Assembly: GCA_965207225.1 (NCBI GenBank)
Contig: CBDBLV010000002.1
Location: 224,001-288,000 of the forward strand
From: Dehalococcoidia bacterium
GTDB taxonomy: Bacteria > Chloroflexota > Dehalococcoidia > Plut-88900
DNA: 64,000 nucleotides
Reading direction: 5' to 3'
In this document: positions 30,346 to 52,555 of the stretch, one piece after another
Numbering within the stretch: the first letter of the stretch is position 1
Layout of the letters: each line of letters starts with the position of its first letter
Notes under the pieces: generated by a model
Database searches by the model: none
Told to the model about the DNA's origin: nothing
What the model saw: only the letters and a program-made list of their open reading frames with translations
Translations under genes and position numbers: made by a program

Positions 30346-30374
30346 TTGCCCTACCTGAACCCCCGTGCTATACT
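30346..30374 (+). promoter_or_regulatory. internal sigma70-like promoter of island A
   Basis: TTGCCC-N17-TATACT with extended -10 TG. Confidence 0.55.
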
Positions 30375-30436
30375 ACGCCCCAGGCCGCCGACCTCACTCC
30401 TCGGCGACCATCACAATGCAGGATCAAAGGAGTCCC

Positions 30437-31792
30437 ATGAGCCGCACCGGCCTACATAGGCCCCGTCTCAGCCGAGCAGCATCCCGCCGCCCGGCCCCCG
30501 GCACGCGCCTCCTCCCAGGCTCCTTTCTCTTTCCACACCCCGTCCTGCACCCCAACACTCACTACAAGCGCTGCCCAAAGGCCCAACGTCTCGGCCTTCG
30601 CAGCGATCAATCACCGCCCCGCCCCATGCAAGGAAGGTCCCCGGACAAATCACGGCACGTCCTATTCAAGGGCCGTTGCCAGGTGCGCGCCCCACTCATA
30701 GGGCGCAACGGTTTCGCCCCGTCAGGCGACGCTAAGGAGCACGGTGTAATGTTGCTCCATCGGGCCATCGCGCCCTTCTTGGATTCCACCGTCGTCACCA
30801 TCGGCAAGTTCCGGTCTACGAACGGCGGTCACGGGTCCATGCTCTCACCCCTTGGGGTGCTAGAGCGCTTCCGGTGGTCGAGGCTGCCCCAGAGCGAGAG
30901 TTTCTCGCGTCTCGTCCACATCCCCTCGGAAGTGTGGGGCTGTCGCAGGGTCGACGCTGGTGTGGACCGTCCCCAGGGGCAGACACCCCGCATCGGTACA
31001 GGCGTCGCCGACATCCTGCGCAAACCGTCCGGGACCTTCCTCCCCCTCCCCCGACTTGCCATGTCATCCCGAGGCCCCGCGAGGGATCTCAAGGGCCCGT
31101 CTCAAGACGTGGCATTCACCACCGTTCACCCCCATCCAACTTCAGGGAGTGTAAGGGGTGCAGCTTCCCGTACCCTGGAGGAATGGGCTGGCATGAGGCT
31201 GATGCCCTCCCCTCCCACCAGTACCAACCCCCGATTTGCTATGTCATCCCGAGGCCCCGCGAGGGATCTCAAGCGCCCGCCTCAAGACATGGCATTCACC
31301 GCCGTTCACCCCCATCCAACTTCAGGGAATGTAAGGGGTACAGCCTCCCGTACCCTGAAGGAATGGGCTGGGATGAGGCTGATGTCCTCACCTCCTACCA
31401 GAACCAAACTAGGGGCAAGCGCCTGTGCCAGGGCACAGGCGCTTGCCCCTGTTTTTCCTTCCCTCTCTCCCTTAAAGGCCCTGAGAGCCTGCCCCGAGTC
31501 CCTCGAGGGGGAGAGCAGGATAAAGAGGGTTAGGGTTCCCCTCTCGTTCCTTAAACAATCAAAGGCGTGCCTGAAACCGGAAAACAATCAAAAGCCCGCC
31601 CCCTCCCCTTCGTCATTCCCGACCCCGATCGGGAACCCACCCCCGGGGGCTGGGCCGCTCGTGCTGAGGCTCTCGAAGTACGAGCGGAGGGGTGGCCCAC
31701 ACCCGACCGTCACGTCTCGCTGGTCATCCTCGCCCACCCCATGCCGTCGTCTCCCCCACAGCGCCACGCGAAATCCCCCAAAACCCCTTTAG
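30437..31792 (+). CDS. putative 451-aa Pro/Arg/Ser-rich ORF reading through the repeats (function unknown, may be spurious)
   Basis: AAGGAG SD 5 nt before ATG 30437, downstream of the promoter; no recognisable domain. Confidence 0.3.
   Translation: MSRTGLHRPRLSRAASRRPAPGTRLLPGSFLFPHPVLHPNTHYKRCPKAQRLGLRSDQSPPRPMQGRSPDKSRHVLFKGRCQVRAPLIGRNGFAPSGDAKEHGVMLLHRAIAPFLDSTVVTIGKFRSTNGGHGSMLSPLGVLERFRWSRLPQSESFSRLVHIPSEVWGCRRVDAGVDRPQGQTPRIGTGVADILRKPSGTFLPLPRLAMSSRGPARDLKGPSQDVAFTTVHPHPTSGSVRGAASRTLEEWAGMRLMPSPPTSTNPRFAMSSRGPARDLKRPPQDMAFTAVHPHPTSGNVRGTASRTLKEWAGMRLMSSPPTRTKLGASACARAQALAPVFPSLSPLKALRACPESLEGESRIKRVRVPLSFLKQSKACLKPENNQKPAPSPSSFPTPIGNPPPGAGPLVLRLSKYERRGGPHPTVTSRWSSSPTPCRRLPHSATRNPPKPL
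31048..31407 (+). repeat. 180-bp imperfect tandem duplication (31048-31227 / 31228-31407)
   Basis: Gap-free near-identical copies, e.g. ATGTCATCCCGAGGCCCCGCGAGGGATCTCAAG at 31061 and 31241. Confidence 0.92.
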
Positions 31793-31841
31793 GCGTCGTT
31801 CAATCAAACCAGCCACGAATTCAATCAACGTTCAATCAAAA
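31784..31841 (+). repeat. CCCCTTTAGGCGTC + 3x TTCAATCAA phased motif
   Basis: TTCAATCAA at 31799, 31820, 31831; related copy on minus strand at 51258-51326. Confidence 0.85.
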
Positions 31842-31918
31842 CCCCACCCCCCGTCGAGGGAGAGGGTCGGAGCATCCCCCCAAGAAGCCGCCGGGTGAAG
31901 GTTCCCATTTGACCCCGT

Positions 31919-31947
31919 TTGACATCCTCACCAAACACGGCTAAGAT
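31919..31947 (+). promoter_or_regulatory. sigma70 promoter of the leader peptide / reductase transcript
   Basis: TTGACA-N17-TAAGAT. Confidence 0.8.
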
Positions 31948-31956
31948 TTTGCACCG

Positions 31957-32007
31957 ATGATTATAAAAATCCATCTCGACCACTGCTCCTGTACCTGTCG
32001 GCTATAG
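31957..32007 (+). CDS. putative Cys-rich leader peptide MIIKIHLDHCSCTCRL
   Basis: ATG 10 nt after the -10 box, no SD; three Cys codons (TGC, TGT, TGT) just before the stop; overlaps attenuator stems. Confidence 0.75.
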   Translation: MIIKIHLDHCSCTCRL

Positions 32008-32079
32008 GGCCGACGTAAAACCGCATAGGCATAACGTTGCGCCCCGACGATGATTCCCATCGACGGGGCGCCTTTTATT
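31997..32079 (+). terminator. attenuator: pause (1:2), antiterminator (2:3) and terminator (3:4) hairpins
   Basis: GTCGGC 31997/GCCGAC 32009; GGGCCGACGT 32007-32016 pairs with ACGTTGcGCCC 32034-32044; GCGCCCCGaCGATG-ATTCC-CATCGaCGGGGCGC 32039-32071 then CTTTTATT. Confidence 0.75.
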
Positions 32080-32110
32080 GCACCTAAGCACCAATGGAGA
32101 CCAACCCGAA

Positions 32111-33925
32111 ATGACCACCGTCGAAAGAGAACCCAAGATCCAGGATAAGGCGGACCTTGACTACTCCAGGGGCATAATCCCCTACCTGCCCCAGGAAGTC
32201 TCCGACTTCGAGACCGAGGTCACCCGCTTCCAGAAGGGCGGCTGGGACGACCCCCTGAAGTTCACCGCCTACCGGCTCGTCCGCGGCATCTACGGCCAGC
32301 GCCAGCCCGACGTTCACATGGTCCGCATCAAGATGCCCTCCGGCTCCCTCACCGCAGACCAGCTCGAAGCCGTAGGTGAAATCGTCGACAAGTACGTGCC
32401 CCTCAATAAGGGGCACGTCACCACCAGGGAGAACATCCAGCTGCACTTCGTAAAGCTGGAGGACACCCCGGAGGTGATGCGCATGCTCGGTGAAGTCGGC
32501 CTTTCCACCCGAGAGGCCTGCGGCAATACAGTCCGCAACGTCATCGGCTGCCCCCTCTCCGGCGTCACCCCTGACGAGCCCTTCTACGTCGGCCCGTACC
32601 TCGCAGCCTTCGCTCGCTGGTTCGTGCGGCATCCCCAGGCCCAGGCCCTCCCCCGGAAAATGAAGTGCGCCTTCGCTAGCTGCAACAACGACTGCGTGGT
32701 CACCGCCATCCACGACCTCGCCTTCAAGCCCAAGCTCAGGGTTGACGAAAACGGCGTAGAGCGCCGCGGCTTCGAGATCATCACCGGCGGCGGCACCTCC
32801 ATCATGCCCCGGCTCGCCTACACCCTATACGACTTCGTCCCCGTCGAAGATTACCTTCGCATCAGCGAGGCTATAATCCGTATCTTCAACCGCACCGACG
32901 AACTTCGGCGTAACCGCATGAAGGCGCGCATCAAGTTCTACATCGACCGCGTGGGCATCGACGCCTTTCGCGAAGAGGTGGAGGAGGAGCTAAAGCAGCC
33001 CTGGGCCCAGGAGTCCTACGACCCCACCCCCCTCATGGAACTCCCACCCGAGCTCATCGACAATCCCCCCGCCCCCGTCCCCGCCGAGACCAACGGCCAC
33101 CACGACCCCGCCTACGAACGATGGCTGTCAACCAACGTCCGGGCCCAGAAGCAGGACGGTTACAACGTGGTCACCGTCAAACTCCCCCTGGGTGACATCT
33201 CCACAGAGCAGTTTCCTATCCTCGGACGTATCGCCCGCGAATTCGCCGGGGGCCGAGTCCGCACCACCGTCGAGCAGAACCTCGTCTACCGCTGGGTGCC
33301 GACAGGCGTACTCAAGGAAGTCTGGCGACAGCTCAAGGACGCGGGTCTCGGGGAGGCGGGCGCCGGAGAGATCAGCGACGTCGTGTCCTGCCCCGGTACC
33401 GATAGCTGCAAGCTGGGCATTACCTCTTCCATGGGGCTCGGGCAGGCCGTAGGCCAGGCCCTCAAGGAGGCGGCCTATGATGACCCCCTGGTCAGGTCCC
33501 TCCACGTCAAGATAAGCGGCTGCCCCAACGGCTGCGCCCGACACCACATCGCCAACATCGGTTTCCACGGCGCCGCCACCCGGGGCGCCAATAAGAGCCA
33601 GATCCCTTCCTATGAGCTCTTCATCGGCGGCAGCTTCGGCAGCGATGAGGCCGCCCGGTTTGGCAAGCGCGTAAAGACCAAGGTCCCGGCAAAGAAGGTC
33701 CCGAGCCTCGTTCAGGACATCGTACGCTACTACCAGGCCGAGCGAGAACCCCGGGAGGTCTTCAACCGCTTCGTGGACCGCGTAGGCACCGAACCCTTCG
33801 AGACCCTCGCTGGCGCTTACAAGGAGACCGGCCCCCTCAACCGGGACACCATAGGCACCTACATGGACTGGGGCAAGACCCGCATGTTCAAGGTCGAACG
33901 CGGCGAAGGAGAGTGTGCCGTATAG
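32111..33925 (+). CDS. siroheme/[4Fe-4S] nitrite/sulfite reductase hemoprotein (probably assimilatory sulfite reductase)
   Basis: GIYGQRQ, MVRIK.P.G, HVTTRENIQ, ACGNTVRNV, LPRK.K, SCPGTDSCKLG, KISGCPNGC, GEGEC; ATG 32111 preferred over TTG 32078. Confidence 0.92.
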   Translation: MTTVEREPKIQDKADLDYSRGIIPYLPQEVSDFETEVTRFQKGGWDDPLKFTAYRLVRGIYGQRQPDVHMVRIKMPSGSLTADQLEAVGEIVDKYVPLNKGHVTTRENIQLHFVKLEDTPEVMRMLGEVGLSTREACGNTVRNVIGCPLSGVTPDEPFYVGPYLAAFARWFVRHPQAQALPRKMKCAFASCNNDCVVTAIHDLAFKPKLRVDENGVERRGFEIITGGGTSIMPRLAYTLYDFVPVEDYLRISEAIIRIFNRTDELRRNRMKARIKFYIDRVGIDAFREEVEEELKQPWAQESYDPTPLMELPPELIDNPPAPVPAETNGHHDPAYERWLSTNVRAQKQDGYNVVTVKLPLGDISTEQFPILGRIAREFAGGRVRTTVEQNLVYRWVPTGVLKEVWRQLKDAGLGEAGAGEISDVVSCPGTDSCKLGITSSMGLGQAVGQALKEAAYDDPLVRSLHVKISGCPNGCARHHIANIGFHGAATRGANKSQIPSYELFIGGSFGSDEAARFGKRVKTKVPAKKVPSLVQDIVRYYQAEREPREVFNRFVDRVGTEPFETLAGAYKETGPLNRDTIGTYMDWGKTRMFKVERGEGECAV

Positions 33926-33932
33926 AGGTCGC

Positions 33933-34301
33933 ATGGGCATAAGCCGCTCCCGCGCCCAGGACTACGCCGAGCAGATCCTCGAAAGGCCCCGCGCCGCCAT
34001 CGACTTGATCATCAGGCGCTCTAAGTCAGGTGTGACTTTGCTGCACAGGGGAAGAGCCGTTACCAAGTGCCACGCAACTGGCGTCGGCGAAATGCAGGCC
34101 GAGTTCATGGCCATCGCCCTCGGCACTGAGCTCCCAGCACTGGGGGATGCGGTTTCCGTCCAGGTTCCCGCCGGCGCTTTCTACCGCGCCATTGCCATCT
34201 CTTCCCTTGACCTCCGCAGACCCGAGGCCCGCCTCCTCCTCAAACAGCACCTCGCCACCGCCCAGATGCAGCGCACCAGCATGCGCAGCATAGAGGCCTG
34301 A
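33933..34301 (+). CDS. hypothetical protein
   Basis: GAGGT SD, host-like C-ending codons, 7 nt after the reductase stop. Confidence 0.7.
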   Translation: MGISRSRAQDYAEQILERPRAAIDLIIRRSKSGVTLLHRGRAVTKCHATGVGEMQAEFMAIALGTELPALGDAVSVQVPAGAFYRAIAISSLDLRRPEARLLLKQHLATAQMQRTSMRSIEA

Positions 34302-51257: not shown

Positions 51258-52555
51258 TTTTGATTGAACGTTGATTGAACATTGATTGAACTCGTAGCTG
51301 TTTTGATTGAATGACGCCTAAAGGGGAAAACGGAGGGGAACCCTCTCCCCCTCGATCCCCCTCTCCCTTAGGGCCATTGAGGGAGAGGGGGAGGAGTAAA
51401 CAGAGGGACGTGCGTGCGCGGGGCGCACGCACGTCCCTCTAGTTTGTACTCGGGGGGAGAGGAGAACAGCGCCGACCTCTGCCTCTAGTTCAGTACTGGG
51501 TGGAAGGGAGGGAATGACGGAGAGGAGCCTGGCTGAGTTGCGTAGTTGGGTCTGGTCGTTCAGGAGGGATGGATTCCCGACTCCTCGGGAATGACGGGTT
51601 AGACGGGCGGGGATGGGGGTGTTCGGTTGTGGGGTTTGGGTATTCATTTTGTTCTGGCTGTGGGGTTTTGGGTCGGCGATGGAAGGTCCGGGACTCGGAT
51701 GCAGGACCTCGATGGCACCTACGCCGACGCTGGTGGCATCGGCGGTTGTCCTGCCTTTCCCTTCACGCATGCCTTGGGAGACTTGCCGCTGTCGAGGGCG
51801 TCTCTGCGTGGGGACATCCGCTCTCTGCATCAGCGCTCGACCGCTGTACGGGACGGCATATCGGCTCGAGGCCGCCGTGGGCGGAAGGAGCCGCATAAGG
51901 GCGCTAAGGCCCTGCATAACGAGTCAGAGGACTCGCGGAATTCCTCGACGAGGGTAAAGTCGGCGAGGCGTATACGCCCGAGTAAGGGGCGTCGTATCGG
52001 CAAGGGCGTCGTTATAGAGAGGCCTGCTGCCGCATAGAGTCGATGGACCATCCATCGCCTGGTGGGTCAGGGAAGGGACACGAGACTTGATGGGATGAGG
52101 AGATGGCGTCCCCGACGTCTCGGGGGCGGTGCCTTGGGTCGGGTCTCGGGGGCTTCCCTGGGTTTTTGGTTCCTCCTTGTGTTACTGAATATCAGTTCGA
52201 ACTGCAAAACAGTTTAGCACGGGTGTAATAGAAGTCAAGGGCTTTCGGGCGCGGTTTTGTCGGGAATACCCCCCAACCCCCCAGGGAACCCTCTCCCTCT
52301 TTATCCCCCTCTCCCCCGTATCGGGGTACGGGGCAGGCTCTTAGGGCCTATAAGGGAGAGGGGGAGAAAAAACAGAGGCATGCACCTGCGCCTCTGCGCA
52401 GGTGCATGCCTCTAGTTTAGTACTGGAAAGAGGGGAGAAGACCATCCTCACCACCTGCTCCCCCATACCTTAGGGCCATTGAAGGAGAAGGGGAGAGAAG
52501 CGTAGAGGCATAGGCATGTGCGTTGCACCCACGTCTGCCTCTAGTTCAGCACTGG
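51258..52555. repeat. palindrome-rich intergenic island B (related to island A, opposite orientation)
   Basis: 4x TTGATTGAA (51260, 51271, 51282, 51303); CTAG-palindrome modules near 51336-51452, 52284-52426 and 52460-52555; GTCATTCCCG hairpin 51571-51595. Confidence 0.85.
52211..52238 (-). promoter_or_regulatory. internal sigma70-like promoter of island B
   Basis: TTGACT-N16-TAAACT with extended -10 TG; AAGGAGG at 52178-52172 but no start codon at SD distance. Confidence 0.5.

Follow-up and report, generated by a model that had tools for sequence, protein, structure and literature searches.

Organisation of the leader region

We analysed a 64,000-nucleotide stretch of the metagenome-assembled genome of an uncultured Dehalococcoidia bacterium (contig CBDBLV010000002.1, positions 224,001 to 288,000; hereafter the window), in which a gene for a reductase of the NirA/SirA type is preceded by a short open reading frame (ORF) rich in cysteine (Cys) codons and by a set of competing RNA helices. 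This leader is the subject of the present work, and its features are collected in Table 1. An earlier note on this DNA had described the promoter, the ORF with its Cys codons, the stems, the terminator and the start codon of the reductase gene, and had read them as an attenuator responding to cysteine; every one of these elements was recovered at its stated position when we re-read the sequence.

Table 1. Features of the leader and of the genes that follow it, in window coordinates (nt, nucleotides; aa, amino acids)
Feature	Position	Strand	Remarks
Promoter, sigma-70 type	TTGACA 31919-31924; TAAGAT 31942-31947	+	17-nt spacer; read from the sequence
Leader mini-ORF	31957..32007	+	16 codons; ATG 31957, TAG 32005-32007; probably leaderless
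Cys codons 10, 12 and 14	31984-86 (TGC), 31990-92 (TGT), 31996-98 (TGT)	+	C-x-C-x-C, interleaved
Hairpin 1:2	31997-32002 with 32009-32014	+	extendable to 31996-32003 with 32008-32015; TAG in loop; -12.5 kcal/mol
Antiterminator 2:3	32007-32016 with 32034-32044	+	10 pairs, one G-U, one bulged C; -13.4 kcal/mol
Terminator 3:4	stem-loop 32039-32071, U-rich tract to 32079	+	-25.3 kcal/mol
Shine-Dalgarno motif GGAG of the reductase gene	32096-32099	+	read from the sequence; GGAG-like motif at the same place in aligned relatives
Reductase gene, siroheme/4Fe-4S, NirA/SirA type	32111..33925	+	604 aa, ATG 32111; Pfam
Small ORF overlapping the end of the reductase gene	33915..34301	+	about 122-128 aa; conserved in family relatives

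The promoter at 31919-31947 scores 10 of 12 in a promoter scan that found two such sites in 5 kb where 0.6 were expected. Its -10 hexamer ends 9 nt 5' of the leader ATG, with no Shine-Dalgarno motif in between. Folding of the 164-nt leader yields -51.8 kcal/mol, with z = -4.3 relative to shuffled sequences. Stem 3:4 has arms of 14 nt with a single A-A mismatch, closes on a loop of 5 nt and leads into CTTTTATT, which makes the segment 32039-32079 a predicted intrinsic terminator between the leader ORF and the reductase gene. The antiterminator 2:3 occupies the first 6 nt of the 5' arm of this terminator. Hairpin 1:2 may be an anti-antiterminator and possibly also a pause hairpin. Searches against Rfam at E values of up to 10 gave no match to any family in the region 31000-33000, the T-box model RF00230 included, and gave none in 20 additional regions upstream of reductase genes.

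Such an arrangement is unique in the genome. A strict scan, which looked for a -35/-10 promoter followed 5-11 nt downstream by the start codon of an ORF of 6-45 codons with at least three Cys codons near its end, matched this leader once and nothing else on either strand of the 4,032,119 bp, and the reversed-sequence controls gave no match. When the promoter rule was dropped, 155 Cys-tailed short ORFs were found in the genome, three of them with a terminator within 140 nt. The two of these other than our leader lacked both the promoter and the layout and were rejected. The same scans detected no such leader at a cysK-like gene (C3:332619). A pattern scan of metagenomes for the family's Cys-codon and hairpin core returned a single match, devoid of promoter, terminator and reductase, which we take as chance.

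Conservation within the family

Of 61 related genomes searched at the protein level, 49 contain the reductase, and the 260 nt upstream of the gene were read for the 12 closest orthologs. The same leader layout was present at 11 of these 12 loci, all belonging to the family of the window; the exception, locus L011, is treated below. The 11 family genomes include eight other species of the genus and two from other genera. In all of them the leader ORF starts with ATG, has exactly 16 codons, ends at an in-frame stop and contains no insertion or deletion. The codons at Cys positions 10, 12 and 14 are TGY in 32 of 33 cases, with synonymous switches between TGC and TGT; the codons lying between them encode different amino acids (S/L/V/T and T/I/M), and drift is seen in the first nine. 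Fixed Cys codons that switch at the wobble base among drifting neighbours are what a translated sensor, rather than an RNA motif, would be expected to show. The promoter, the TAG in the hairpin loop and the terminator are common to all 11 leaders, and the -35 and -10 columns are kept in their alignment (A1).

The helices are conserved as well. On A1, hairpin 1:2 is paired in 89.8% of 88 cells (26-44% in slid controls), the antiterminator in 97.3% of 110 (38-65%) and the terminator in 83.1% of 154 (33-51%). Compensatory changes affect two of the eight pairs of 1:2 and four of the 14 pairs of 3:4; in the antiterminator one pair goes from U-A to C-G, and another five show variation on a single side. 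Alignment A5, whose 14 sequences were fitted to a covariance model and which for that reason leans towards the proposed structure, has compensatory changes in 4/7 pairs of 1:2 and 9/13 pairs of 3:4. There the two stems together are 90.2% paired with both-side changes in 13 of 20 pairs, and none of 500 shuffles attains any of five measures. The check that the earlier note had proposed, a search of relatives for conserved Cys codons and covarying stems, came out in favour of its reading, in the 11 family genomes as in both alignments. A search with covariance model R1 gave one full-length match in each of 11 of the 12 family genomes, always before the reductase gene, and the family genome with no match also lacks the reductase.

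Divergent leaders in other Dehalococcoidia

Divergent versions of the leader precede orthologous reductase genes in other lineages of Dehalococcoidia and SAR202. In a first sample of 74 reductase loci with enough upstream sequence, a Cys-tailed short ORF was found at eight on the forward strand and at one on the reverse. Reading of the sequences added lineages with leaders of 15-17 codons holding only one or two Cys, and leaders of 11 codons were also met. Across the class, the reductase was present in 186 of 401 genomes (a tally that includes G243, left out of the upstream comparison), from which 80 more upstream regions were taken. Under the promoter rule with at least two Cys codons, these gave 11 forward candidates, 10 of them convincing, and none in reverse; with at least three Cys codons and no promoter rule the score was nine loci against one. 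The leader was present at 22 of the 107 loci examined in the class sample as a whole: 11/11 in family f1, 7/7 of those fetched in f59, where runs of three to four consecutive Cys occur, 1/4 in f29, and single loci in f35, f70 and f85. It was absent from all 12 fetched loci of f34.

A search blind to cysteine led to the same residue. Among 179 non-redundant upstream regions, 27 contained a promoter-proximal ORF of 8-45 codons, and the reverse-complement control contained none. At least two Cys codons are present in 25 of these 27 mini-ORFs, and Cys is their commonest residue (18.5% of 410). Covariance model R1 matches the divergent leaders L099, L102, L101 and L047 at E values of 1.2e-3 or lower. 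The R2 search over 151 genomes of the class, which is insensitive to divergent members because its filters scored few candidates per genome, gave one further full-length match outside the family, in G131 and again before the reductase.

In all 29 leaders collected, a search restricted to the 4-12 nt upstream of the start codon found a -10-like hexamer ending 6-11 nt before it; TTGACA is exact in 21, and a Shine-Dalgarno-like motif is missing from 28. Such promoter spacing is suggestive of leaderless transcripts. A hairpin surrounds the stop codon in 22 of the 26 leaders analysed. On a FastTree phylogeny of 101 reductase rows, the 24 leader-bearing rows all fall in one clade of 47 (support 87) and none among the other 54.

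Two further traits of the collected leaders were noted. In many of the 29 peptides Pro is the last residue or lies one or two residues ahead of the stop, and GG usually comes directly after the stop. Ribosomes terminating slowly at Pro ends of this kind could be held over segment 2.

A T-box in place of the leader in a sister lineage

The nearest reductase ortholog outside the family, L011 (genome G042; 70% identity), has no Cys leader. It is preceded instead by a T-box (RF00230; L011:3420-3671, - strand), which scores 118.7 bits against a gathering score of 93. The specifier loop of this T-box reads GAA-G-UGC-G. In the layout given in the part of PMC4574755 drawn on here, a conserved GA is followed by two bases, the codon and a conserved purine; applied to L011, this layout makes the specifier UGC, a Cys codon. 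Like the leader of the window, the T-box stands before the orthologous gene, would sense the charging of tRNA(Cys) and would act through a choice between terminator and antiterminator. They differ in that a T-box binds uncharged tRNA directly and independently of translation, whereas our reading of the leader is ribosome-mediated.

On the reductase tree L011 is sister to a leader-bearing member of the family (support 96), within a clade of 15 rows (support 97) in which the other 14 carry the leader. This nesting of the T-box among leader-bearing loci suggests that it replaced the leader there; the tree is a quick one with midpoint rooting and does not settle the direction of the change. About 1 kb upstream of the T-box lies a c-di-GMP-II riboswitch match (L011:4703-4784, - strand; 55.2 bits, gathering score 53.5).

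A probable cysteine-sensing transcription attenuator

The sequences show that the features of the leader exist, are conserved and covary, that they occur only once in the genome and that across lineages they accompany the reductase. We interpret the leader as a ribosome-mediated transcription attenuator of the trp/his type that senses cysteine on a probably leaderless mRNA, and we put the probability of this interpretation at roughly 0.8. What we infer here is where transcription starts, that the ORF is translated, that ribosomes stall on it, that the choice of helix is made kinetically and that the outcome responds to cysteine. Of the sequencing runs listed as containing 31900-33000, none is marked as RNA.

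Transcription would start at the ATG at 31957 or a few nt before it, and a ribosome would translate the 16 codons of the leader. With ample Cys-tRNA(Cys) it would reach the TAG, where its footprint would cover segment 2 (about 32007-32017); after its release, hairpin 1:2 would reform. Either the footprint over segment 2 or the reformed hairpin would allow terminator 3:4 to fold, and the polymerase would stop near 32076-32079, short of the reductase gene. With little charged tRNA(Cys) available, the ribosome would stall with the second or third Cys codon in its A site, covering segment 1 and leaving segment 2 free. Segment 2 could then pair with the emerging 32034-32044 and withhold the base of the terminator, so that the polymerase would go on to transcribe the reductase gene and the small ORF that overlaps it.

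Constrained folds agree with much of this scheme. Counted from the first base of the A-site codon, the footprint was taken to extend by 12 nt, and the transcript was cut before the 3' arm of the terminator. Under these settings a stall at the second or third Cys codon makes the 2:3 helix the minimum-energy structure, and a ribosome at the stop codon removes it, as had been claimed. In this model the claim that stalling on the Cys codons masks segment 1 is borne out for the second and third codons and fails for the first, where a stall leaves 1:2 intact; codons 12 and 14 are thus the likely sensing positions. The energies of 1:2 (-12.5 kcal/mol) and 2:3 (-13.4 kcal/mol) are close to those of a switch. 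The behaviour of these folds, the conserved Cys codons and the covarying stems together support the attenuator interpretation put forward at the outset.

Several observations weigh against it. The full-length terminator (-25.3 kcal/mol) greatly exceeds the antiterminator (-13.4 kcal/mol) in stability, and of the 14 nt in its 5' arm the antiterminator takes only 6. Read-through must therefore be kinetic, as in other attenuators, and could be undone by strand displacement. In a truncated transcript free of ribosomes the minimum-energy fold holds 2:3 and not 1:2. Conservation has its irregularities too: one family genome has Gly at the third Cys position, one distant relative has a single Cys in its leader, and when at least two Cys codons were counted with no promoter rule the two strands were alike (15 and 14 of 80 loci). 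Automated footprint folds of 26 divergent leaders gave a weak contrast, with the base of the terminator paired upstream in 16/26 under a Cys stall and in 9/26 with the ribosome at the stop.

In that survey the terminator calls failed or were wrong at several loci, and it was replaced by a duplex test on 20 lineage representatives, 19 of which were used (L014 had no terminator call). The 13 nt following the first base of the stop codon pair with the terminator base of the same leader at a mean of -13.2 kcal/mol, compared with -10.4 when partners are swapped. None of 20,000 permutations was as good, and 12 of the 19 beat at least 95% of their shuffles; shuffle and permutation figures of this kind overstate the support, because kinship links the sequences. 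In 18 of the 19 representatives, stop and terminator lie 28-39 nt apart.

Alternative explanations

The least unlikely alternative is that the leader is translated and senses cysteine but acts mainly on translation or mRNA stability through the reductase gene's ribosome-binding site, which would be masked or exposed. The only Cys-containing short ORF dissected by experiment works translationally, according to the part of 10.1101/834739 used here, and in the full-length fold of our leader the CUCC at 31986-31989, inside the mini-ORF, pairs with the GGAG at 32096-32099. This contact is however long-range and of four base pairs only, the ORF bases involved look non-conserved by eye on the alignment, and between the mini-ORF and the GGAG stands a GC-rich hairpin with a U tract, conserved with compensatory changes. 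We consider translational control improbable.

A second possibility retains the attenuator and removes cysteine as its specific signal: it would be constitutive, or triggered by general translation stress or slow termination. Endings of the Pro type terminate slowly, many of the relatives' leaders end in Pro or in Pro-containing tails, and any slowing of a ribosome over segment 1 would favour read-through. Yet no residue but Cys is consistently enriched, sulfide for cysteine comes from the regulated gene, and the T-box at the same place in the sister lineage has a Cys specifier. These points make a non-specific attenuator improbable as well, if anything slightly more so than translational control.

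Conservation of the hairpins and the terminator would also be expected if the region were an untranslated structured RNA, for instance a riboswitch or a protein-binding leader, that controls the terminator and in which the reading frame is incidental. Against this stand the TGY-NNN-TGY-NNN-TGY periodicity with nothing but wobble changes at the Cys codons, the fixed length of 16 codons with ATG and in-frame stop conserved in 11/11, and a variable 5' half with no conserved pairing. The Cys enrichment in the Cys-blind search and the lack of any Rfam match at E values of up to 10 argue in the same sense, and we regard such an RNA as very unlikely.

That a chance short ORF merely lies beside the terminator of an upstream transcription unit is hardly credible: short ORFs are common, as the 155 Cys-tailed ones found with no promoter rule illustrate, but the strict scan gave one match against none in its controls, the leader is kept in 11 family genomes and in several other lineages, and a strong terminator at 31410-31451 already serves the upstream unit, with the promoter located between that and the leader.

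Relation to known leaders

Read as a cysteine-sensing attenuator, the leader of the window shares with the trp, his, leu, thr, ilv and pheA leaders of Escherichia coli and Salmonella the late position of the regulatory codons, the stop between segments 1 and 2, the mutually exclusive helices 1:2, 2:3 and 3:4, and the intrinsic terminator ahead of the structural gene. In the trp leader about 80 nt separate the regulatory codons from the end of the terminator; here the distance is about 83 nt. Unlike the classical leaders, it would sense cysteine, is apparently leaderless, has interleaved rather than tandem regulatory codons and belongs to a member of the Chloroflexota. It would also govern a single reductase gene with a small ORF, not a biosynthetic operon of the classical kind.

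Closer parallels come from three publications, each drawn on here in part. Canestrari et al. 2020 (10.1101/834739) report that leaderless polycysteine short ORFs of mycobacteria respond to cysteine; the one that was dissected acts on translation, a long duplex hiding the ribosome-binding site that is then unmasked, and the authors leave the level of control at other mycobacterial loci undetermined. From what that source describes, the mycobacterial ORFs and ours have in common their short length, Cys codons near the C-terminus, a position before cysteine or sulfur genes and a proposed role of stalling as the sensor. They are set apart by the mycobacterial criterion of at least two consecutive Cys codons, since our leader reads C-x-C-x-C, and by the masking duplex, in place of which the window has a terminator with a short antiterminator and only the non-conserved contact of 4 bp with the GGAG.

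Brewer et al. 2021 (PMC8632094) predicted an upstream ORF, uORFC-8-2, before the cysteinyl-tRNA synthetase gene cysS in Rhodobacterales (Alphaproteobacteria). As described in the part of their paper used here, it resembles our leader in its Cys codons and in a terminator stem with a U run, and both are predicted attenuators. The descriptions differ in that uORFC-8-2 has two tandem Cys codons, 14 and 15, inside the first stem and precedes cysS, whereas the window leader has interleaved codons 10, 12 and 14 and precedes a sulfite reductase gene. Seliverstov et al. 2005 (PMC1262725) listed candidate Cys leader peptides in Actinobacteria and suggested Rho-dependent termination. These are likewise short ORFs with Cys codons near the stop, lying before cys or cbs genes; unlike our leader they have runs of Cys, and that source, in the part consulted, gives them neither terminators nor conserved hairpins.

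Our search of the literature found no publication on such an element in Chloroflexota or for a sulfite reductase. According to the earlier note, no terminator-based Cys attenuator is known to have been described in Chloroflexota, and nothing to the contrary was found in print. The terminator-based Cys design as such is not unprecedented, given the prediction of uORFC-8-2 (PMC8632094, as far as its description extends).

Taken across lineages, it is fairly probable that the leader of the window belongs to an old, clade-wide family of leaderless cysteine-sensing transcription attenuators of the NirA/SirA-type sulfite reductase in Dehalococcoidia, SAR202 included. If so, it would be the first case of classical leader-peptide attenuation in Chloroflexota, it would drive an intrinsic-terminator decision from a leaderless mini-ORF, and at least one sister lineage would have exchanged it for a T-box with a Cys specifier. 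Cysteine has, to our knowledge, long been without a described leader-peptide attenuator; a terminator-based version in an uncultured and ecologically abundant group would add the missing classical form, the studied mycobacterial case being translational. The occurrence of two sensors of tRNA(Cys) charging, leader peptide and T-box, at the same place before orthologous genes would represent regulatory turnover. The covariance model could be used to flag cysteine-regulated genes in Dehalococcoidia and SAR202 metagenomes.

The reductase and its sulfur context

Taken by itself, the sequence of the reductase leaves its substrate, nitrite or sulfite, ambiguous. Pfam models NIR_SIR (4.8e-52) and NIR_SIR_ferr (3.7e-35) match it. 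Both of the best NCBIfam models fall below their cut-offs, 'NirA family protein' with 261 bits against 523 and ferredoxin-nitrite reductase with 246 bits against 594. Its best relatives of solved structure in the PDB are plant nitrite reductases (188 bits) and Mycobacterium tuberculosis NirA (1zj8, 166 bits), the latter of which is reported to be a sulfite reductase. A PAPS-reductase gene follows one leader-bearing ortholog, and a gene for a TauE sulfite exporter lies near another. The Cys leader, the Cys T-box of the sister lineage and this gene context point to an assimilatory sulfite reductase. The preference for sulfite over nitrite, first argued from the leader, is strengthened by the Cys specifier of L011 and by the PAPS-reductase neighbour, and the leader and the T-box may help to annotate the enzyme as a sulfite reductase. 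The enzyme is most likely made only when cysteine is scarce.

The ATP-sulfurylase model of Pfam has no match in the genome, which is 92% complete; APS kinase and sulfonate pathways were not searched for. The PAPS_reduct model gives one weak match in the genome, of 26.9 bits, in a frame of 582 aa. As the two Pfam models tried recovered no sulfate-activation genes, the reductase may use sulfite from other sources.

Neighbouring features

The small ORF at 33915-34301 is kept after the reductase gene in relatives of the family, with 83, 70 and 61% identity. It belongs to no Pfam or NCBIfam family, and its Atlas leads are all below 0.9. It is probably co-transcribed and co-regulated with the reductase gene.

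Upstream of the leader promoter, the segment 31410-31451 forms a perfect palindromic hairpin of 19 pairs, accompanied by runs of T on either strand; it is probably a terminator that works in both directions and ends the upstream transcription unit. The open frame at 30365-31792 (475 aa), also upstream of the leader, has no match in Pfam or NCBIfam. Same-strand arrays of a unit containing CAATCAA, spaced by about 11 or 22 nt, lie at 31556-31839 of the window, and a further array is found at 51260-51309 on the - strand. The genome contains 36 CAATCAA clusters of at least three copies, and similar copies occur upstream of the leader in relatives; these arrays could be a dispersed repeat or a protein-binding array.

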